Positions 1 through 9,643 are shown, numbered from the stretch's first letter. The stretch: 64,000 bases of DNA from Chitinophagales bacterium (GCA_022360175.1 JAKSDI010000289.1:1-64000); one strand, 5' to 3'. Notes: generated by a model not told the origin, from the letters alone. Translations and numbers: made by a program.

Positions 1-236
1 ATGCCTTAGCTATTAAAGCAGAACCTGCCTACTCAAATCATTTTGCATCTGCACTAGGTATATTCTCCATCGTACTCTTTATACAGGTGATCATCATGTT
101 GTTTGGGCCTCGATCCTGGTCTTCACCGGGAGCATTATTTTTGCAGGCTTCTGCACAGAAGGTAGTAGTATATGCGGAAATGACCTGCATGCTTTACCAA
201 TCTTACGGGGCATTGCGGTATATCAATAGGATGTAA
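1..236 (+). CDS. 3' end of a membrane protein (partial, start lies outside the window)
   Basis: Frame beginning at position 3 reads an open, hydrophobic C-terminus (...GIFSIVLFIQVIIMLFGP...YINRM) and ends at TAA 234-236. No family could be assigned. Confidence 0.3.
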   Translation, partial: ALAIKAEPAYSNHFASALGIFSIVLFIQVIIMLFGPRSWSSPGALFLQASAQKVVVYAEMTCMLYQSYGALRYINRM

Positions 237-245
237 GTGAATAAC

Positions 246-1523
246 TTATTGTAAATCTTTAATATTTTTTCTGGCTTCTTCTACTTTTTTACTATCGGGG
301 TATATCTCTATAAATTTTTGATAGGCACCTATCGTATTTTGCTCTTGTGCTTTTTGCCATGCCTTGTCTTCCGTAGATGTTGAAGGCTTACTTTTATTTG
401 GACCGTCCAGCTCAGAAGGGCTCATCGGGTTTTCCTTATTTTCTTTTGAAGGGTTCTGGTCAATGCCAGTCTGGAATGGTAAACCTACAAAAAGGGCAAC
501 TCCTACTGCCAACACGACTGTGGCAGCTATAGACATACGCCTGATGCGAGCCCCTGTATTGTGCTTTGGTTTTGGCGCTGCGGGCGGAACAGCTCGAGGA
601 GTTGGAGTATAATTTTCTATTACATCCTGAATAAAAGGACCACCACTATTCGCAACACTCTCTGCCTGAGTAATGGACGGCTCAGGTTCCACCCCAGGCT
701 CTACAGGAAGAGCAGATGTTCCAGCATCAAATGCAAGGCTAATCCCGGAAGCGGCAAATTCAGCAGGCACCTTTTCTTCTGCAGCTGCTACAATTTGAAT
801 CATCTCCTCCCAGCTTATATTGCGCAAACGCTCTATACCATCAATCAGCTCTACTACCGATAACTTTAATAACAGCTTAAAAGCTCCTTCCCGCAAAGGA
901 GTCACAAAGAATTTCCACTCGGTATATTCTCCTTCCTGTAAGAACTGTTCTTCATCTGAATAAGAACGGATGGAAAAAGCCGCTTCAGAATTAGGATCAA
1001 TCAACTCTGCCTGCATCACTTTAGATATCCTTACCTCTTTTACTTCTACTTCTTCCGTTATCTCCAGATCATTGGCAATAACAGCTCGCTCATAGGCCAA
1101 ACGAATGATGCACTCTTCCTCTCTCCCTATTGACATCTGACGGGGTATCTTATGTAAGAGCGCTCCTCTTCCTGGCTGATTGGGTGATGTACCAAAGGAT
1201 ATACCTCCTTCTTGGTTAGCTTCAAAATCCTCTATTTCCAATTCATCAACAAAGAGAAGCAAGTCATAACGCAATTTATTGTACAACAACTGCAATTGCT
1301 CATTTGACAACACTCCCATTATATTTTTCTGGTTGGCTTCATTCAAGCGCCCTTTTAATGCCAGCAAGATATTGTGCTTTTCTGCTGCTTCTGGCATATA
1401 CTCTTCTATAGCAGTGATTGCCTTTGTCATACTCTCTGTGACCAGAGTGCGCCATTCATCTTTTAAGTGTTGTAGTTTTTCTTCGCTTAACATTTGTTGA
1501 ATACGGTGTCTTTGAAAACTCAA
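246..1523 (-). CDS. Single-pass membrane protein partnered with the ROCO GTPase: cytoplasmic alpha-helical N-terminal region, Pro-rich linker, one TM helix, short periplasmic TPR-like tail (YbgF/CpoB-like AYQKFIEIYPDS..A...L motif)
   Basis: 425-aa ORF lying 29 bp downstream of the ROCO gene on the same strand. One TM segment (SIAATVVLAVGVALFVGLPF). The C-terminal tail carries a TPR-like motif. The N-terminal roughly 100 aa are helical and charged. Confidence 0.6.
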   Translation of the reverse strand: MSFQRHRIQQMLSEEKLQHLKDEWRTLVTESMTKAITAIEEYMPEAAEKHNILLALKGRLNEANQKNIMGVLSNEQLQLLYNKLRYDLLLFVDELEIEDFEANQEGGISFGTSPNQPGRGALLHKIPRQMSIGREEECIIRLAYERAVIANDLEITEEVEVKEVRISKVMQAELIDPNSEAAFSIRSYSDEEQFLQEGEYTEWKFFVTPLREGAFKLLLKLSVVELIDGIERLRNISWEEMIQIVAAAEEKVPAEFAASGISLAFDAGTSALPVEPGVEPEPSITQAESVANSGGPFIQDVIENYTPTPRAVPPAAPKPKHNTGARIRRMSIAATVVLAVGVALFVGLPFQTGIDQNPSKENKENPMSPSELDGPNKSKPSTSTEDKAWQKAQEQNTIGAYQKFIEIYPDSKKVEEARKNIKDLQ

Positions 1524-1552
1524 TATACGAAATGGTAATAATTAAACGCCAA

Positions 1553-4315
1553 TCATTTACTATTGCCTTTTTCACGTAAAAAACGTTTAAAATCTGACCA
1601 TACCTCTTTCATATCATACTCTACTTCATAAGCAGCAAAGTATAAATCCAGCTTCAGTTTTAATTTATGCTTGGGGCTATAAGTTTTGGATACCTCTAAT
1701 GCCTCCTGCATCTTTACGGCTTCAGCTTCAGAAAGTTGCTCTGAGAGATTTTCAAGTGCTGCGTCGAGTTTTTCCATCCAGTTCTGTAGCTCTTTCTCTG
1801 AAAAAGTGACCGACTCCAAATGCTCCTTTATTTCCTGATATTCTCCTCGAAACTGATCGGAGATGCGAGCTTCAAAATCAGAAATGGCCTTACGTGTTTT
1901 ATTGTGCTCTCTGGTTATTTTTTGCTTGACAGATTTATAACCATCCAACAACTCTTTGGCATATTCAGGCATGTATTCTTCCTTTTCATAAATCCCCTCC
2001 AGCAAAGCTCTTACTGATATATCTTCCAGGGAATTGTCGCATACATCTGAAGGCCTGCCCCGCTCATGAAATTTAACCAGTCGGGAATAATCAAAGAAAT
2101 AAGGCTCTGGCTCTTGTCGACATTCATCACAAATGCAGGGTATTTTTTGGGAAAATTGTACATTAGGAAACCATTTCTGATGGATGGATTCTATTTCATT
2201 CCGTACCCAACGCAAGACGAATTTCTTTTCCATAGTGCGCCCCATTATTTCTATTTCTATACTTTGCTTTGGGAAACCCTCTTCTATCACCTGCGCACGA
2301 CAATCATCCTTTTCCAATACAACGCCCTTTTCCCAAACCAAGCCAGGATGTTCTCCCTTATGGCCAGCTATGGATTCATTCAGGCGTACAATTAGGCGGG
2401 TGATGACGCCTTTCGGCAAAAAGTGATACTGATAGCGAAACTTGAGGCTCTGAGTATTATCCCAATCATAATCAGGGCGAATATTGTCTAAAAGCTGGGG
2501 AGCAATGTATTTATGTTTGCTGATCGCATAACAAATTTCAAAGTTTTCCTTCATCATCATGCTAAGCAACATAGCCCGCTCTTTCCGACTGTAGGCATTC
2601 CACAATTCGTCTACTTTCTCTTTTGTAAATACGCCTTGCGCCTCTTTGACTGTTTTATCTTCCAAAATGCAATAAACCGCATCTACTGCCCATTGTGGAT
2701 TGAGAATCACAAAATCCTGCAAAGTCGTTTCATTCTGAAAATGCAAAATACTGCCCAGTTTATGCAAATAGCTACTAAGTAATAATTGATCTTGCTCTCT
2801 CTCTATGCTGTGCTTTTTGCAAACATCAAAAAAATGCTGTTCTGGTATATGGTTGTGCTCTTTTGCCAATTCCCGCAAATCTGCCCGAATGGCTTTCCAT
2901 TTTTTAGGCAACTCATAACCTACATGGGGTAATTGACACAGCATTTCCTGCACCTTCTCTTTTAGGTGATAATACCTTTTATCCACTTTTGATAAATCTA
3001 CTTCCAGTACTTCCAGCCTGGTATTCGGATATGTCTTTTTAAAATATTTATGATCATAATTCGAAATAGATTGATGTTTATTTTCATTTAGCACCACTAG
3101 TATTGGGCTTTGTATATATCCTTCTTTCCCCAGTAAATGTACTGCCTCAAACCAATAAGGGAAATTAGTATGCTGCTTACGATCATCTGCTACCAGCACA
3201 TATAATGCACTGGGTGTAAGGAAGAACTGGTGGGTCATATACTGAATTTCCTGGCCACCAAAATCCCAGAGGTTAGCAGAGAAGTTTTTTTCTTTATCAT
3301 CCAGCATCTCAAATGTCCAGCCTTCATAAACATTAATACCTAAAGTAGAGACTTCAGCTTCTGAACTTGGATTTGGGACAGGATAAGTTTCATCTATTAA
3401 TTTTTTCATCAAGGAAGTCTTTCCTGCTCCTGGCTCCCCTACAATGATCAATTTAGCTTCCATCAGTGGCTCTGTACCCTGTTCTTCCTGCTGGCGGAAG
3501 TAGGCAAGGATAGCGTCTTTCCCTTGTACTATAATTTCATTGGGAGGATTTTGAATAGGATTTCCATGTAAATTGATAGAATTTGAACCATATGAGGTCC
3601 ATTTAACAGGTACTCCTTTTTCAAGTAACCTTTTAATAGGAAGTAAATCTTTAATCTTATTAGAGCGAATATCTAAGTGCCTTAGATCATTCAAGTGTTC
3701 CACAAAGCTTATATCACTAATTTTATTAGCGTTGAGATACAATTTTTGCAACTTATTCCCCAAGCGCATATTACTAATTTGGTTAGAATTTAAGTTGAGT
3801 ATCTCTAAAAATTTTAGACTTCCTAAAAAACATTTATCCCTAATTCGATTAAAACTGAGATCTAGATTCTTTAAATTAGTTAAATATTCCAAAAAACGAA
3901 TATTACTTATTTCGTTAGAGTTTAAATCCAAGCCTTGGAGATACACTAGATGCTTTAAAGAACTAATATCGCTGATTTTATTGTAACTAAGATCCAAATA
4001 TTGCAGTCCTCTTAAATGTTTTAAAAAATCTACATTGCTAATCTCATTGGAGCTCAAATAAAGTGTGGTTAATGGTAATTCTTCCAATCGATATAAACCT
4101 GTTTTATTACTTCCCAATTTATTTTTACCTTCTTCGTTACTTAGCCGGTACATATCCCTGTAGAAAAAAACATCCCCCAAATTCAGCCCTTCCAAATGCT
4201 CCAGTTCAAATAAAGAATCTGGCAGTTCGGTCAGTCCTAAATTTCCCAAATCCAAAAAAGGGGCTTTGCTTTTTTTGTTTTCGGCAATGAGGGCTTCAGC
4301 TTTTTTGAGGCTCAT
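1553..4315 (-). CDS. ROCO-family signalling protein: N-terminal leucine-rich repeats, Roc (Ras-of-complex) GTPase, COR domain, C-terminal coiled-coil region
   Basis: At least 8 LRR units (LxxLxLxxNxIsdI). Walker A GEPGAGKTSL and DFGGQE switch II follow a pre-Roc 'NPPxEII.QGxxAIxxYF' segment. A long COR-like region is followed by an E/K-rich C-terminus. Confidence 0.85.
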   Translation of the reverse strand: MSLKKAEALIAENKKSKAPFLDLGNLGLTELPDSLFELEHLEGLNLGDVFFYRDMYRLSNEEGKNKLGSNKTGLYRLEELPLTTLYLSSNEISNVDFLKHLRGLQYLDLSYNKISDISSLKHLVYLQGLDLNSNEISNIRFLEYLTNLKNLDLSFNRIRDKCFLGSLKFLEILNLNSNQISNMRLGNKLQKLYLNANKISDISFVEHLNDLRHLDIRSNKIKDLLPIKRLLEKGVPVKWTSYGSNSINLHGNPIQNPPNEIIVQGKDAILAYFRQQEEQGTEPLMEAKLIIVGEPGAGKTSLMKKLIDETYPVPNPSSEAEVSTLGINVYEGWTFEMLDDKEKNFSANLWDFGGQEIQYMTHQFFLTPSALYVLVADDRKQHTNFPYWFEAVHLLGKEGYIQSPILVVLNENKHQSISNYDHKYFKKTYPNTRLEVLEVDLSKVDKRYYHLKEKVQEMLCQLPHVGYELPKKWKAIRADLRELAKEHNHIPEQHFFDVCKKHSIEREQDQLLLSSYLHKLGSILHFQNETTLQDFVILNPQWAVDAVYCILEDKTVKEAQGVFTKEKVDELWNAYSRKERAMLLSMMMKENFEICYAISKHKYIAPQLLDNIRPDYDWDNTQSLKFRYQYHFLPKGVITRLIVRLNESIAGHKGEHPGLVWEKGVVLEKDDCRAQVIEEGFPKQSIEIEIMGRTMEKKFVLRWVRNEIESIHQKWFPNVQFSQKIPCICDECRQEPEPYFFDYSRLVKFHERGRPSDVCDNSLEDISVRALLEGIYEKEEYMPEYAKELLDGYKSVKQKITREHNKTRKAISDFEARISDQFRGEYQEIKEHLESVTFSEKELQNWMEKLDAALENLSEQLSEAEAVKMQEALEVSKTYSPKHKLKLKLDLYFAAYEVEYDMKEVWSDFKRFLREKGNSK

Positions 4316-4541
4316 AGTATGGGGTGTTGATGAAAAAATAAGGGGTTTGTATTATTTTTGAATTGATCAGAAATATACGTTTTTTCTCTTTTCCTGCCTA
4401 TATGTAAAGGCTAATTTGAGAGGACAATGTTTTGATAATTCTTTCCCCCTTCTTTATCCCCCGCATGCTGTCGCTGCAGCTTTATCGTAGGCGCCCAGCG
4501 GCTACCATATGCAGTGGCCGTTTTAAAGATTACAATGTCAG

Positions 4542-4637
4542 GCTTTAAAGCTGGGCGGCAGTGGGAAACCGCGGCCCAGCTAATTCATGCTGAGGTGCAG
4601 TTTGCCACTGCCCCTCAGCTTTATCCAACTTCAGTGA
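4542..4637. repeat. Copy 1 of a roughly 95-bp hairpin-rich intergenic repeat (family C)
   Basis: Direct repeat of 4903-4999 at about 85% identity. It contains two predicted hairpins: gctgggcgg...ccgcggcccagc and ctgaggtgcagt...actgcccctcag. Confidence 0.7.
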
Positions 4638-4902
4638 TTTTAGATTACTTGTAAGCAAGAGATTTGATAATTCAGAATTTATTTAACGGTACTTAGTGCT
4701 TTGTTAATACTGAAATGATGGGCAGAAACTTCGTAGAAATCAATACTCTAACCGACCCCCTGGTGTCAAACATAGGGCATCGCGGAAACATTCCGCGACG
4801 AACGGGGATTCACCAACGAATTTTTATTGCTTCCTGTTTGCTTTCCCGATATACAGTGTTGAAAAGCCTCGCCATAGTTTTAAACTATGCCTATGTTTTT
4901 GC

Positions 4903-4999
4903 CTTGTTTAAGCTGGCAGCAGTGGTAAACCACTGCCCAGCTAATTCATGCTGAGGTGCAGTTTGCCACTGCCCCTCAGCTTAACCCATCTTCAGTAAA
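4903..4999. repeat. Copy 2 of the family C repeat
   Basis: Shares the core 'cccagctaattcatgctgaggtgcagtttgccactgcccctcagct' with copy 1. Hairpin 1 differs from copy 1 but stays base-paired (gctggcagcagtgg/ccactgcccagc). Confidence 0.7.
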
Positions 5000-5088
5000 A
5001 CTGAAACTTGTCACTCTATCTCCACAATTTCTTTTACAGTATAACTTTTTGTTACCTCATCTTCTAAAATGCCTTATATTTGCAGCCT

Positions 5089-6879
5089 ATGAAGAATATT
5101 AGAAACTTTTGTGTAATCGCTCATATCGATCATGGGAAGAGTACCCTCTCGGATCGCCTATTGGAATTTACCAAAACAATAGAGGAGCGGCAGATGCAGG
5201 CCCAGGCATTAGATGATATGGACCTGGAGCGGGAAAGAGGTATTACTATTAAAAGTCACGCCATCCAGATGTACTATGATCATGAGGATGGTGAACAATA
5301 TACGTTCAACCTGATTGATACTCCTGGCCACGTGGATTTTTCTTATGAAGTATCCCGATCTATTGCGGCTTGTGAAGGAGCACTATTATTGGTAGATGCA
5401 ACTCAGGGTATACAGGCACAGACCATTTCCAATCTATACCTCGCTATTGATCACGACCTGGAAATCATTCCTATCCTGAATAAAATCGACATGGATAGTG
5501 CCATGATTGATGAAGTGTCAGAGCAAGTGATGGACCTGATTGGTTGTGATTTGGATGATATCATCCTGGCTAGTGGTAAAACAGGGCAAGGGGTTCCTGA
5601 TATCATGACTGCAATTGTAGATCGTATCCCTGCTCCAGAAGGTGATCCGGAAGCGCCATTACAAACGCTGATTTTTGACTCTATGTTTAATCCATATCGT
5701 GGAGTGGTTGCTTATTTTAGAATTATGAATGGCACGCTTCGCAAGGGGGATTCGGTTCGCTTTGTGAATACAGGCAAAGAGTATAATGCTGATGAAATAG
5801 GTGTCTTGCGCCATACGCAAGAACCACAGAAAGTATTGGCAGCCGGTAATGTAGGTTATATCATCACAGGGATTAAGGAGTCGAAAGAGATTAAAGTAGG
5901 TGATACCATTACGCATAAAGAACGTCCTTGTCAAGAAGCTATCAAAGGATTTGAAGATGTAAAGCCGATGGTCTTTGCGGGTATCTTTCCTCTGGATAAT
6001 GATGACTTTGAGGATCTGCGTGACAGTTTGGAAAAGTTGCAACTCAATGATGCTTCTTTAACTTTTGAGCCAGAGACATCCGCTGCACTTGGATTTGGAT
6101 TCCGCTGCGGATTCCTTGGTATGCTGCATTTGGAAATTGTACAGGAGCGCCTTTTCCGTGAGTTTAATCAGGATGTAATCACTACGGTACCTAACGTATC
6201 TTATATAGCTCAGAATACGAAAGGTGAGACTTTTACTGTACGTACTCCTTCAGAATTACCAGATAACAACCTTTTAAATTACGTTGAAGAGCCTTATATC
6301 CGTGCACAAATCATTACGAAACCTGACTATATAGGTACCATTATGACGCTATGCATGGAGAAAAGAGGTACCCTCACCAAACAGGTATATCTGACCACAG
6401 ACCGAGTAGAACTGACTTTCGATATGCCTCTGGCAGAGATCGTCTTTGATTTTTATGACCGCTTAAAATCACTCTCACGTGGTTATGCTTCTTTCGATTA
6501 TCAGCCATTGGATTATCGTAAATCTGACCTGGTAAAAATGGATATCAAGCTAAATGGTGAGAATGTAGATGCCCTTTCAGCCCTTGTACACCGAACCAAA
6601 GCAGAAGCTTTCGGCCGAAAGATTTGCAAAAAGCTCAAAGAGTTATTACATCGCCAGCAATTTATGATTGCGATTCAGGCCGCTGTAGGCGCTAAAGTGA
6701 TTGCCAGAGAAACCCTTTCTGCTCTCCGTAAGGATGTAACTGCAAAATGTTATGGCGGTGATATTACCCGTAAGCGTAAACTTCTTGAGAAACAGAAAGC
6801 TGGTAAGCGCAAGATGAGGCAGTTTGGTAAGGTGGAAGTACCACAAAAGGCATTTTTGGATGTATTGAAGTTGGATTAA
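5089..6879 (+). CDS. lepA: Translation elongation factor 4 (LepA/EF4)
   Basis: N-terminus [30 protein letters not shown] and NKID motifs, and a LepA-specific C-terminal domain. I placed the start at the 4th Met (MKNIRNF), which is the conserved start. Confidence 0.95.
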
Positions 6880-7033
6880 GAAGTTTTATGTAGTTATATG
6901 GCTAGTGGTTGATGTGGGCAGAAAGACATATAGTTATGTGGGCATATAGCTTAGACTAGAGAATAAGTGGCAAGAATCATCACTTAATCAGATGATATAA
7001 TAAGCAATCCATCTTTTGGATATAAAAAATGGA

Positions 7034-7068
7034 GCCATTCCTGAATGTAGTATTTAGGAATGGCTTTT
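7034..7068 (+). terminator. Rho-independent terminator candidate downstream of lepA
   Basis: 9-bp perfect stem gccattcct/aggaatggc with a 13-nt loop, followed by TTTT. Confidence 0.45.
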
Positions 7069-7687
7069 CCATTTAGGTGTCCATCCTAATAGACCTGAAA
7101 CTAAATAAATAGCATAGGCATACTAGTGCACACCAAACTTGTTGTTGCTTTTTCGTTTGCTTGAAACAAATAGATGTATACGTCTTGTTATATGAACATA
7201 ACAGACAACACAATATGCATCAAGTTAAAATATAAAACCAGCAATATGTGAGAATCCGACCTTATCCTTACTTGCCTGAGCAGAAGGTATTTCGTTCATG
7301 GAATAAGATAAGTAATAATAGCGTGGGGTTTTGCGTGTTTTGGGATACTTGCTGGATTAACTAGGGTTGCTTTCTTCCAGCTAGATGGGGTTTTGTAGGT
7401 AGTTCCCGGATTTTCCGGAAGGAGGAATAATGTAATGTAGCTATGATTAATAGTAACGGCTACGACTACGCTGTGATGCCATATTTGACATAAACACCAG
7501 CCCTCCACCAATGACGAATGCACCTGTGGCGATGTACAAAATCAACATAAGCCGATAAGTGTTTTGAATGGTGAATAAAAATGGTTTTCTCTATGTTTGT
7601 ATGATGTTCATGAGGGCAGTGCTAAAATGGGAATTTTTTTCTTTGTTACATAATATTTAAGAAAAAAAATTACATTCCTTTTGTTTT

Positions 7688-8473
7688 TTATACTTCTCCG
7701 TTTAAATATAGTAGCTCTACGGTAGGCTTTTGGCTCCCACCTGCTGGTTCTAATGTCAGGTTATAACTTTCAGCATGTTCAATAAACTCGACTTCCTGAA
7801 AATCATCCATACTATAATCGATAACTCCCATGTTGATCATCTCTCCTTCTACATCAGCCCAGAGTTGGTAAGTTTTTCCAGAGGGAGGTGTAGGAAGTTG
7901 AGTAAGGTTTAGCAGTACCTTACTAGCTACAGGATTATGGTAAGCAATTGCTGTAGCATCAGGAGCTAATTGGCTCCCTTTTAATTCAATGGGACGAGTG
8001 GCACTATGCTGAAGTAGTGCATAAATTTTTCCCTGGCTGTCAAGTTCAGATTTTTGATTTTCACAATCTGCTCTAAAAGCAGCAAAAGCAACCGCCATTT
8101 TTTCCAGTTTATGTTCCGTCTTTAGTTTTCCTTTATAAGCGATGAAAGTAAAGGCAGCGAGAACGGCTATCAGTGTCCACAGTAGAATACTACTCTTACG
8201 GCTAGGTGCTACCCTGGTAATATATTGAGCAGGCTGGGGTTTATGATTTTCCTCATCAGTAGCATGCGCTACTTTTGATTTTAATTCTTCTGGAGGAAGT
8301 GAAAGGTACTGCATAACATAATCATCCAGTTCACTCCGCATATTTTCAATTTCCTGGGCTATTTCAGGAAATGTCATAGCATACTTTTCTACTTTAGCGG
8401 TCTGCTCTTCATCGGTCAAACCTAATATATACTGCTCTATAAGCCCAGATTGCAAAAACTTTTCTTTATCCAT
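7688..8473 (-). CDS. Anti-sigma factor, RskA-like (zinc-finger-less N-terminal anti-sigma domain, one TM, C-terminal anti-sigma-K domain)
   Basis: N-terminal LIEQYILGLTDEE..A.VE.....PE...E pattern, central TM (ILLWTLIAVLAAFTFIAY), C-terminal KTYQLWADVEGE motif. Confidence 0.7.
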   Translation of the reverse strand: MDKEKFLQSGLIEQYILGLTDEEQTAKVEKYAMTFPEIAQEIENMRSELDDYVMQYLSLPPEELKSKVAHATDEENHKPQPAQYITRVAPSRKSSILLWTLIAVLAAFTFIAYKGKLKTEHKLEKMAVAFAAFRADCENQKSELDSQGKIYALLQHSATRPIELKGSQLAPDATAIAYHNPVASKVLLNLTQLPTPPSGKTYQLWADVEGEMINMGVIDYSMDDFQEVEFIEHAESYNLTLEPAGGSQKPTVELLYLNGEV

Positions 8474-8977
8474 CCTCCTGATTATATGACAATCTTATAG
8501 TTGAATGCCTAACAGACTAATATATGTTTTGTTTAATAGCAGCTATTTTTAATAGTTCTTAAGTTTTTCTTAACATTTTGTCGAGATTTTCTGGATGCTT
8601 GCCGAGGAAAATAGATTACTAGTGTAGAAACCAGCATCATTGTACCGTAACCACCCGACAAAAAGAATGAGTTTCAAAAACATGTATCAATTGCGTCTCG
8701 ATCTTTTAATTTTAAATATTCTGACAGCTTGTACATCCAATTGTAACTTCATTCTCAGATAGTTTCCAAGTAAATTAAAATGATGTTTTTTGCCAAAAGG
8801 CCAAATGAAAACATAGAAGTGATTTGAACACTTATTATGCTGGCTATGCCTTTGCAAAAGGTACTATCACTTCCTACTCTAAACCCCAATTACCAAATGG
8901 GAACGGGCATCAGAAGTAATTCAGTGGGTATATACTCACTTGTACTTCTGTTACCTCTACCCTAAAATACCTTATGA

Positions 8978-9643
8978 ATGCAAGAATTGATTCACTTCGC
9001 TGTAGAACCTTCTAACATTGTGTTTACGACTTTGCTTATTATTATTGGTTTGTACTGGGTGAGTGTTTTATTCGGAGCTATGGATTTAAGCAGTTTTGAC
9101 ATTGAACTAGACACGGAAGTGGATGTGGATGTGGATGTCGATATGGATGCTGACACAGATTTAGAAACGGGTTCCTCTGGAGGCTGGATGCTCAGTGCTC
9201 TACATTTTTTCAACTTTGGCAGAATGCCCTTCATGCTTATAATGAGCACCTTAATATTAAGCCTCTGGGCACTTGAAATTCTAAGCAATTACTATATAGG
9301 AAATGGGCGAATAGATATTATGCTAGCCCTCTTTTTTCCCATATTATTAGTGAGTTTGATCATTACCAAATTGGCCACTACCCCTCTCGTACCTCTATTT
9401 GCCAATATGGAGGGAGGAGTTGGAGCTATTGACTATATCGGGCAGGAATGTGTACTTCGTCTGCCAGCTTCTGCAACAAATATGGGACAAGCATCACTAA
9501 ATGTAAATGACAATCCTATTATCATAAATGTAAAAACTGAAAAAGATGAAACCGTAAGTAAAGGAAGCCGGGCAGTTATTACGCGGGCTGACCCGGAAAA
9601 CAAATTTTTCTATGTGAAAGCGCTAATTGAAGAATTCATTTAA
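8978..9643 (+). CDS. YqiJ/NfeD-like inner membrane protein (partner of flotillin), with an acidic (VD)n repeat
   Basis: Two hydrophobic segments plus a C-terminal OB-fold-like region. It sits immediately upstream of a flotillin gene on the same strand, the YqiJ-YqiK arrangement. The DNA repeat gtggat x3 encodes DVDVDVDVDMD. Confidence 0.6.
   Translation: MQELIHFAVEPSNIVFTTLLIIIGLYWVSVLFGAMDLSSFDIELDTEVDVDVDVDMDADTDLETGSSGGWMLSALHFFNFGRMPFMLIMSTLILSLWALEILSNYYIGNGRIDIMLALFFPILLVSLIITKLATTPLVPLFANMEGGVGAIDYIGQECVLRLPASATNMGQASLNVNDNPIIINVKTEKDETVSKGSRAVITRADPENKFFYVKALIEEFI

Follow-up and report, generated by a model that had tools for sequence, protein, structure and literature searches.

We analysed a stretch of 64,000 nucleotides (nt) from a Chitinophagales bacterium (GCA_022360175.1, JAKSDI010000289.1:1-64000; called the window below), in which two genes lie one after the other on the minus strand between positions 246 and 4315. 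The upstream gene encodes a ROCO GTPase of 920 amino acids (aa) composed of leucine-rich repeats (LRRs), a Roc G-domain and a COR region, and the downstream gene encodes a protein with a single transmembrane (TM) helix, referred to here as the partner. An initial annotation, made from the sequence alone, had proposed that the two proteins form a transmembrane signalling or conflict pair. Both genes are real and the 920-aa protein is clearly an LRR-Roc-COR GTPase. The two genes are, however, neighbours in this lineage alone, and their pairing is not conserved. The features of the locus are the following; the source of the assignment is given in brackets where it matters, and ORF stands for open reading frame.

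1553 to 4315, minus strand: ROCO gene, 920 aa, with LRR, Roc, COR-A, COR-B and a C-terminal tail (ORF, Pfam and homology to the bacterial protein CtRoco)
4263 to 4315, minus strand: first 53 nt of the ROCO coding sequence, the part that survives as a deletion scar in the related contig L080 (blastn and alignment)
3620 to 4072, minus strand: seven regular 22-residue LRRs, residues 82-232, with an irregular repeat or cap N-terminal to them (regular expression; LRR_4 and LRR_8 by Pfam)
3083 to 3454, minus strand: Roc G-domain, residues 288-411 (Pfam Roc, E 5e-21)
1994 to 2908, minus strand: COR-A, residues 470-609 (E 8e-43), and COR-B, residues 622-774 (E 2e-31), both by Pfam
1556 to 1987, minus strand: ROCO C-terminal tail, residues 777-920 (comparison of the tail family)
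1494 to 1552, minus strand: spacer of 59 bp from the ROCO stop to the partner ATG
246 to 1493, minus strand: partner gene, 415 aa, ATG at 1493 (an alternative TTG at 1523 would give 425 aa); NCBI MI974_31385, hypothetical protein
1218 to 1493, minus strand: EAD11 adaptor, residues 1-92, a cytoplasmic four-helix bundle
774 to 1196, minus strand: Ig-like or MG-like beta-sandwich, residues 100-240
540 to 773, minus strand: Pro-rich disordered cytoplasmic linker, residues 241-318 (predicted local distance difference test score, pLDDT, below 50)
474 to 536, minus strand: single TM helix, about residues 320-340, N-in (AlphaFold2, AF2, helix 320-336; hydropathy window and K/R bias)
252 to 374, minus strand: periplasmic TPR-like helical hairpin, residues 374-414
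5080 to 6879, plus strand: lepA, used as a synteny anchor (ORF call and synteny in relatives)

Roc was found directly followed by COR (COR-A and COR-B) in one polypeptide, which is the definition of the ROCO family, with Pfam scores far above the cut-offs. The window ROCO matched CtRoco (PDB 6hlu) at an E-value of 9e-92 over residues 81-781 in a phmmer search, and the alignment with CtRoco chain 8r4b spanned residues 81-874, thus reaching into the tail. CtRoco, from Chlorobium tepidum, is the bacterial homologue of LRRK2, the GTPase of Parkinson's disease, and bacterial ROCO proteins have long been used as structural models of LRRK2. The ORF, the Pfam domains and the motifs GEPGAGKTS and DFGGQE bear out what the initial annotation had said of this protein, and its count of at least eight LRRs came close, since a regular expression gave seven regular 22-residue repeats preceded by one irregular repeat. 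Its statement that the architecture is rare in bacteria was wrong: 4,977 of 8,000 scored candidates matched the window ROCO at E≤1e-20, and the class has been catalogued (Kaur et al. 2021). The GC content of the gene (37.5%, against 37% for the window) shows no sign of recent foreign origin.

The second gene was confirmed on the same strand as an ORF at 246..1523. All homologues and the NCBI model use the ATG at 1493, so that the 425 aa and 29-bp gap given initially become 415 aa and a spacer of 59 bp. The single TM helix and the TPR-like nature of the tail had been predicted correctly, while the supposed 330-aa helical region in front of them resolved into EAD11, a beta-sandwich and a disordered linker. 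EAD11 (PF19964) was detected by Pfam at the N-terminus with an E-value of 2e-14 (53.6 bits for a cut-off of 26); the domain, of about 90 aa, is modeled by AF2 as a four-helix bundle with pLDDT above 90 and can be aligned to its counterparts in ROCO and CHAT proteins. The following beta-sandwich of about 135 aa is all-beta, holds the most invariant columns of the family alignment and had the lowest ratio of nonsynonymous to synonymous substitution rates (dN/dS) of the four regions tested. The linker of about 80 aa gave a dN/dS of 0.44 between the window and L080. Lysines and arginines lie on the N-terminal side of the TM helix, and a low-complexity stretch separates this helix from the TPR-like hairpin, which AF2 models with confidence. 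Paralogues carry TonB_C, FGS, Fib_succ_major or PG_binding at the place of the hairpin. TonB_C, by which the TonB family is recognized, was not found by Pfam in the window partner.

We then turned to the conservation of the pair. A genome scan with one genome per species gave 79 loci encoding partner relatives in Saprospiraceae, Lewinellaceae, Haliscomenobacter and related Bacteroidota, with at least 3 kb of upstream sequence in 60 of them and at least 3 kb of downstream sequence in 72. Searches by tblastn with each ROCO domain produced no match below an E-value of 0.07 in any of the 79 loci, and no ROCO gene was present within 10 kb; the positive control, the partner itself, was recovered in all 79. 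Likewise, no ROCO was detected in 12 metagenome loci, which were found with a narrower alignment and represent a more divergent part of the partner family, nor near the partner on six contigs of close relatives (L080 to L082 and L090 to L092), the scar in L080 aside. Clustering of the ORFs revealed no conserved neighbour around the partner relatives. The partner has lepA as its direct divergent neighbour in 13 of the genome loci and on the six close-relative contigs, and in the 13 genome loci the same anti-sigma gene as in the window often follows beyond lepA. The 64-kb window itself encodes no other EAD11 and no second ROCO. Relatives of the ROCO were found on 12 PLSDB plasmids, and members of the partner family on 0. 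The initial annotation had called for a neighbourhood survey of ROCO homologues and had named a partner unlinked to ROCO genes in most genomes as a result that would speak against its pair. This is the result obtained: the partner relatives were unlinked to ROCO in 79 of 79 loci, and no recurrent linkage of the two genes emerged.

The history of the site could be followed in the nearest relatives. Contig L080 shares 85-91% of its aligned nucleotides with the window, and blastn aligned it to positions 1-1532 and then again from 4263 on. L080 lacks window positions ~1565-4262 and has kept the region upstream of the ROCO gene, the ATG and 17 codons (MSLQKAEALIAENQKNK), followed out of frame by what appear to be the last ROCO codons. 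The N-terminal peptide encoded by the scar is a conserved ROCO feature, since the ROCO proteins P0051, P0099 and P0164 start alike, and this indicates that the gene was deleted in L080. The simplest reading of the alignment would be an internal deletion of ~2.7 kb, bounded by AAAAAGCAAAGC and AAAAAGGCAATAG, two short stretches that resemble each other; its 3′ junction is less certain than its 5′ junction. The closest relative, L090 (89-95% identity), has a different sequence at the position of the ROCO gene and no trace of it. In L081, L082, L091 and L092, lepA lies beside the partner with no ROCO, and in more distant relatives a ROCO was never seen at this site. The scar in L080 and the absence in L090 together support the presence of the ROCO gene in the ancestor of a small clade, followed by at least one and probably two losses.

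The partner persisted through these events. It is intact in L080, and its dN/dS in the comparison with the window was 0.18 overall, 0.12 for EAD11 and 0.08 for the beta-sandwich; lepA gave 0.011 in the same comparison, with a dS of about 0.5. The partner is thus under purifying selection between the two genomes. Furthermore, the 3′ ~45 nt of the spacer, directly preceding the partner ATG, are conserved both where the ROCO gene is present and where it is absent, which suggests that the partner has expression signals of its own. In L090 the partner is broken up into two ORFs, one of 133 aa and one of 296 aa, which may reflect a real frameshift or an error of the 8x long-read assembly. The same contig carries, just upstream of the partner start and within the conserved segment, an insertion of ~190 bp resembling a miniature inverted-repeat transposable element (L090:9470-9670, ENA ERZ25074695 ctg340548), with 12-bp terminal inverted repeats AGAGTTTATGTA and TACATAAACTCT. 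It had been suggested at the outset that absence from close relatives would mark the pair as accessory; this applies to the ROCO gene, which is deleted or absent there, and not to the partner, which is retained. Three close genomes with the ROCO gene intact, present as a scar or absent constitute a natural experiment, which documents the fast turnover of such GTPases and shows a neighbour that is independent of them.

EAD11 is not restricted to the partner family. Among the 120 best ROCO relatives, 10 bear it as a fused domain, at the extreme C-terminus in nine of them and as two N-terminal copies that replace the LRRs in the tenth (P0138), and it is also fused to CHAT proteases. In a Bacteroidota metagenome-assembled genome (JBEAVK010000278; L083:1-8762), four co-oriented genes follow each other. 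The first encodes a 1,413-aa LRR protein that is probably another ROCO, and the next three encode an EAD11-CHAT protein, a PGAP1-like alpha/beta-hydrolase and a ROCO-EAD11 protein (P0164). By its domain content this locus is a textbook case of the "EAD principle", the predicted homotypic coupling of proteins through EADs (Kaur et al. 2020, Kaur et al. 2021), linking ROCO and caspase-like components through EAD11. Locus L074 has a gene of the partner family with an EAD11-CHAT gene 43 bp upstream of it. Of five ROCO-EAD11 genes examined in their context, four were solo. According to Kaur et al. 2021 (PMC8195603), the C-terminal domain of LRR+AP-GTPase+COR proteins varies among at least 24 types, EADs and EAD11 included, and the tables of that paper list LRR+AP-GTPase+COR+EAD11 proteins (also with TIR and with caspase) in Haliscomenobacter and other Saprospiraceae. 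EAD11 is thus a genuine ROCO-associated adaptor. The idea that the partner is an adaptor protein was sound in this respect, as its N-terminus is an effector-associated adaptor shared with these ten ROCO relatives, and failed as regards a dedicated pair. In the window, EAD11 was found on the partner and not on the adjacent NTPase, so that homotypic EAD coupling is unavailable to this ROCO.

We therefore looked at the ROCO tail. It is built of a helical or coiled-coil part followed by a KxKLKL motif, and defines a recurrent family shared by the window ROCO with P0062, P0065, P0072, P0086, P0114, P0131, P0166 and P0168. Members usually terminate in ...K[EQ]LF, and the window copy stops about 8-10 residues before that point. 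No Pfam family matched the tail of the window ROCO at E≤10, and no Pfam model covers the tail family. An AF2 model from seven sequences showed long helices at a pLDDT of 56, with the KxKLKL segment disordered. A divergent EAD11 was considered and rejected: BLASTP yielded short chance matches only, hmmsearch --max with an EAD11 profile of the partner family gave no match in the ROCO ORF, and hhalign assigned a probability of 0.4% to a relationship between the tail family and EAD11. As judged from these sequence comparisons, the tail is a different, uncharacterised family and not EAD11. The two ROCO genes with the same tail that could be placed in context are solo amid housekeeping genes and have neither an EAD11 nor a beta-sandwich protein as neighbour.

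The tails of other ROCO proteins differ in their relation to the membrane. P0051 and P0138, the closest Roc-COR relatives of the window protein, both end in TM helices, a single C-terminal one in P0051 and several C-terminal segments in P0138, the protein in which two N-terminal EAD11 copies stand in place of the LRRs. A TM-like segment was seen in about 17 of 79 parsed ROCO tails, and many ROCO proteins among the relatives would thus be membrane-anchored themselves.

The motifs of the G-domain were compared in a census of the 120 best ROCO relatives plus CtRoco. The window protein has an intact G1 (GEPGAGKTS), switch-I threonine (in STLGINV) and G3 (DFGGQE), and these elements (GxxxxGK[ST], Thr and WDFGGQ) are invariant across the whole set. 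Its G4 reads NENK at about residues 413-416, aligned to NKID of CtRoco, and the canonical N/TKxD is absent. The initial annotation had made its proposal depend on the presence of G4 and G5 elements in the Roc domain; the canonical NKxD form of the former is missing, and for the latter a G5-like DLSK was found. Asparagine was the sole invariant position of G4 in the census, and the guanine-specifying aspartate occurred in 25 of 120 aligned sequences, CtRoco among them. Since a non-canonical G4 is common to most of the sampled relatives, it does not represent a private lesion, and the protein stays in the ROCO family. Given the NENK motif, the base specificity of the window ROCO appears uncertain, and this group of relatives may not share the nucleotide specificity of CtRoco and LRRK2.

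Because the spacer measures 59 bp and a scan detected no terminator-like site in it, the ROCO and partner genes may be co-transcribed. A sigma-70 promoter scan, which does not model Bacteroidota promoters, returned fewer sites than shuffled controls. No Rfam family was detected in positions 1-5300 and no tRNA in positions 1-9000, and the locus showed no integration-site signature.

The size of the partner family was estimated by an exhaustive HMMER search of cluster representatives with the full partner alignment, which gave at least 4,056 clusters at 50% identity (E≤1e-3), 492 of them at E≤1e-30. An alignment of EAD11 alone searched against an index of 5.8 billion proteins returned three matches, a number to be read with the domain being too short for the word index and for database-wide E-values. 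All of the top 150 representatives have the N-terminal module of EAD11 and beta-sandwich, and their lengths are variable. Exactly one TM helix was predicted in 105 of the 142 newly retrieved sequences among them (median start at residue 292), and 87 of the 107 representatives having a TM helix are richer in K/R on its N-terminal side. In a Pfam census of 64 longer members, EAD11 was found in 62, FGS in 25, Fib_succ_major in 14, TonB_C in 8, Lcl_C in 7, YfiO in 5, PG_binding_1 in 3 and TIR in 1; four close homologues of the window partner end in TonB_C. Together, the census and the TM topology indicate that these proteins have a constant part in the cytoplasm and a variable, extracytoplasmic part that is a binding domain. 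In the passages that deal with FGS, Kaur et al. treat it as an invader-binding domain of conflict systems. No description of an EAD11-Ig-TM-ectodomain family was found in the literature texts and tables searched. This family is a more interesting lead than the gene pair from which it was recognized.

We favour the view that the ROCO and the partner are two separable modules that became neighbours in one lineage, and give it a probability of about 0.6. The ROCO would be a stand-alone accessory AP-GTPase of the predicted NLR-like class of counter-invader sensors. By homology to CtRoco, its LRRs probably keep it as an inactive dimer; GTP binding to Roc-COR would cause a dimer-to-monomer change, release the LRRs and free the variable tail as output, which here would be the uncharacterised helical KxKLKL tail. 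The partner would be a vertically inherited single-pass protein (N-in) with a constant EAD11 and Ig-like module and a variable extracytoplasmic domain. As EAD11 is also borne by ROCO relatives and CHAT proteases, the partner is most likely a membrane-anchored docking or sensing component, which would recruit EAD11-tagged proteins encoded elsewhere through homotypic EAD11 contacts. It is thus probably part of an EAD11 docking network linked to ROCO proteins, and the adjacent ROCO, which has no EAD11, is probably not its cognate.

A more specific version of the docking role is tentative, and we hold it to be possible rather than probable. In this version the family would consist of "death-receptor-like" transmembrane proteins, in the order ectodomain (FGS/FGE-sulfatase, Fib_succ_major/Lcl_C lectin-like, TonB_C, PG-binding or TPR), TM helix, Ig-like domain and Death-like EAD11, and an envelope or extracellular cue, for instance phage adsorption or wall damage, would lead to the recruitment of EAD11-tagged ROCO and EAD11-CHAT proteins. 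If true, bacteria would possess outside-in signalling that feeds into an immune machinery of NLR/ROCO type.

Several points weigh against two separable modules. The genes are co-oriented at 59 bp with no terminator detected, and could share one transcript. A chance insertion of a ROCO gene beside one of the few EAD11 genes of the genome is somewhat improbable, and this ROCO clade is the very one that uses EAD11. A trans-acting EAD11 protein in this genome is assumed, the search for EAD11 and ROCO genes having covered the 64-kb window. The comparisons addressed EAD11, and the two proteins might meet through a contact that is independent of it, such as one between the ROCO tail and the beta-sandwich. 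The pattern-based locus scans cover mainly orthologues and nearer paralogues of the partner. To our knowledge, an experimental function has been shown for no bacterial ROCO and no EAD. Finally, in the tables of Kaur et al., two Saprospiraceae ROCO-EAD11 genes, the TIR-bearing NUO01599.1 and the caspase-bearing WP_013763674.1, are flanked by "FGS" genes, and these "FGS" genes could be members of the partner family that are linked to ROCO.

The alternative that survives best is that the partner is an envelope housekeeping protein of Saprospiraceae, a tether or regulator of TonB-like or BamD-like type in which EAD11 serves self-association only, the adjacency to the ROCO gene being due to chance. 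The orthologues are inherited vertically, in synteny with lepA, an ECF sigma/anti-sigma pair, clpB and other such genes; dN/dS is low, the family was not found on plasmids, its ectodomains include TonB_C, PG_binding_1 and YfiO-like TPR, and PADLOC gave no defence hits. We nevertheless regard this explanation as unlikely: in the sequences and tables examined, EAD11 also occurs as a fusion with ROCO GTPases, CHAT proteases and TIR, which is the effector-adaptor context behind the name of the domain, the commonest ectodomain is FGS, which is invader-binding according to Kaur et al., and an EAD11-CHAT gene lies just upstream of a family member in L074.

A dedicated two-gene signalling or conflict module, in which the partner would couple the state of the GTPase to the envelope or relay envelope signals to the GTPase, is quite improbable. 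It draws on the common strand, the short spacer with no terminator-like site, the presence on the partner of EAD11, the adaptor of this ROCO's relatives, the adjacent EAD11-coupled genes in L083 and L074, and the presence of the ROCO gene at this site in a common ancestor of two or more of the genomes sampled. However, the window ROCO carries no EAD11, no ROCO was found beside partner relatives in about 90 loci, and two close relatives that lost the ROCO still encode the partner (intact and under selection in L080, split in the low-coverage assembly L090). In addition, other ROCO genes with the same tail are devoid of such a neighbour, the conserved ~45 nt ahead of the partner ATG point to its own expression signals, and the natural deletion in L080 hints that the function of the partner is unchanged when the ROCO is gone. 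That the ROCO is a decaying, non-functional passenger heading for loss as in the near relatives, as its NENK motif, its shortened tail and the losses in L080 and L090 might suggest, is very improbable in view of the intact 920-codon ORF with G1, switch-I threonine and G3, the non-canonical G4 common to most of the 120 relatives and the strong scores of COR-A and COR-B.

These proteins can be set against known systems. Like CtRoco (PDB 6HLU, 8R4B, 3DPU), the window ROCO has the order LRR-Roc-COR-A-COR-B, with G1 and G3 identical in type. It differs by NENK instead of NKID at G4, by fewer LRRs and by a tail of another family, and is known here from its sequence. The mechanistic template used above is the GTP-driven dimer-monomer cycle of CtRoco, which Galicia et al. 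reportedly described in 2024.

The closest class is that of the AP-GTPases with LRR, AP-GTPase, COR and a variable C-terminus, which in Figure 6D and the related text of Kaur, Iyer, Burroughs and Aravind 2021 (eLife 10:e70394) is predicted to be counter-invader and reported as abundant in Saprospiraceae such as Haliscomenobacter. The window ROCO shares this architecture; the C-termini of its relatives vary (EAD11, TM segments, TIR and others among the 120 best), and it is likewise patchy and accessory, being lost in two near relatives and having relatives on plasmids. In contrast to the described members, its tail bears no recognised effector or EAD, and the anti-invader role is a prediction for the class as a whole. 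A literature search found no experimental report of protection against phages or invaders by this ROCO class, and neither protein matched PADLOC-DB v2 significantly, the best E-values (7e-4 to 0.03) being noise from P-loops or coiled coils.

Compared with EAD-coupled systems such as L083, the partner resembles the effector-side components by its terminal EAD11 and adjoins an NTPase of a kind that uses EAD11. However, the adjacent NTPase has no second EAD copy, the adjacency is not conserved, and in place of an enzymatic effector the partner combines an Ig-like domain with a TM helix and a small domain in the periplasm. With inner-membrane proteins of the TonB and anti-sigma types, it shares the single TM helix, the Pro-rich low-complexity linker and the small periplasmic C-terminal domain. 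It departs from them in that its large conserved domain is N-terminal and cytoplasmic, the Pro-rich linker is also cytoplasmic, and TonB_C is missing.

Both components are thus of known kinds, LRR-Roc-COR proteins and EAD adaptors being already catalogued, and the pair as first posed matters little, as a one-lineage arrangement of catalogued parts. Besides the natural experiment described above, its value is that the partner exposes a large unstudied family, which joins lectin-like, FGS or TonB_C ectodomains to a cytoplasmic EAD11. If EAD11 domains hetero-associate, this family would give bacterial ROCO proteins an upstream input that can be tested, and an address at the membrane.

Further features were observed on the lepA side of the locus. 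The region between lepA and the ROCO gene contains an 82-nt direct repeat at 4554-4635 and 4915-4996, the copies being 91% identical and spaced by 361 nt. Each copy folds into two strong hairpins (minimum free energy of -34 to -40 kcal/mol, z about -4), with no match in Rfam. A single copy is apparent in L080 and L090, and the window therefore seems to have undergone a local tandem duplication. Beyond lepA, an anti-sigma gene of RskA_C type (window 7688-8473, minus strand) is syntenic with lepA and the partner in relatives, and in L081 an ECF sigma factor gene lies directly upstream of it.

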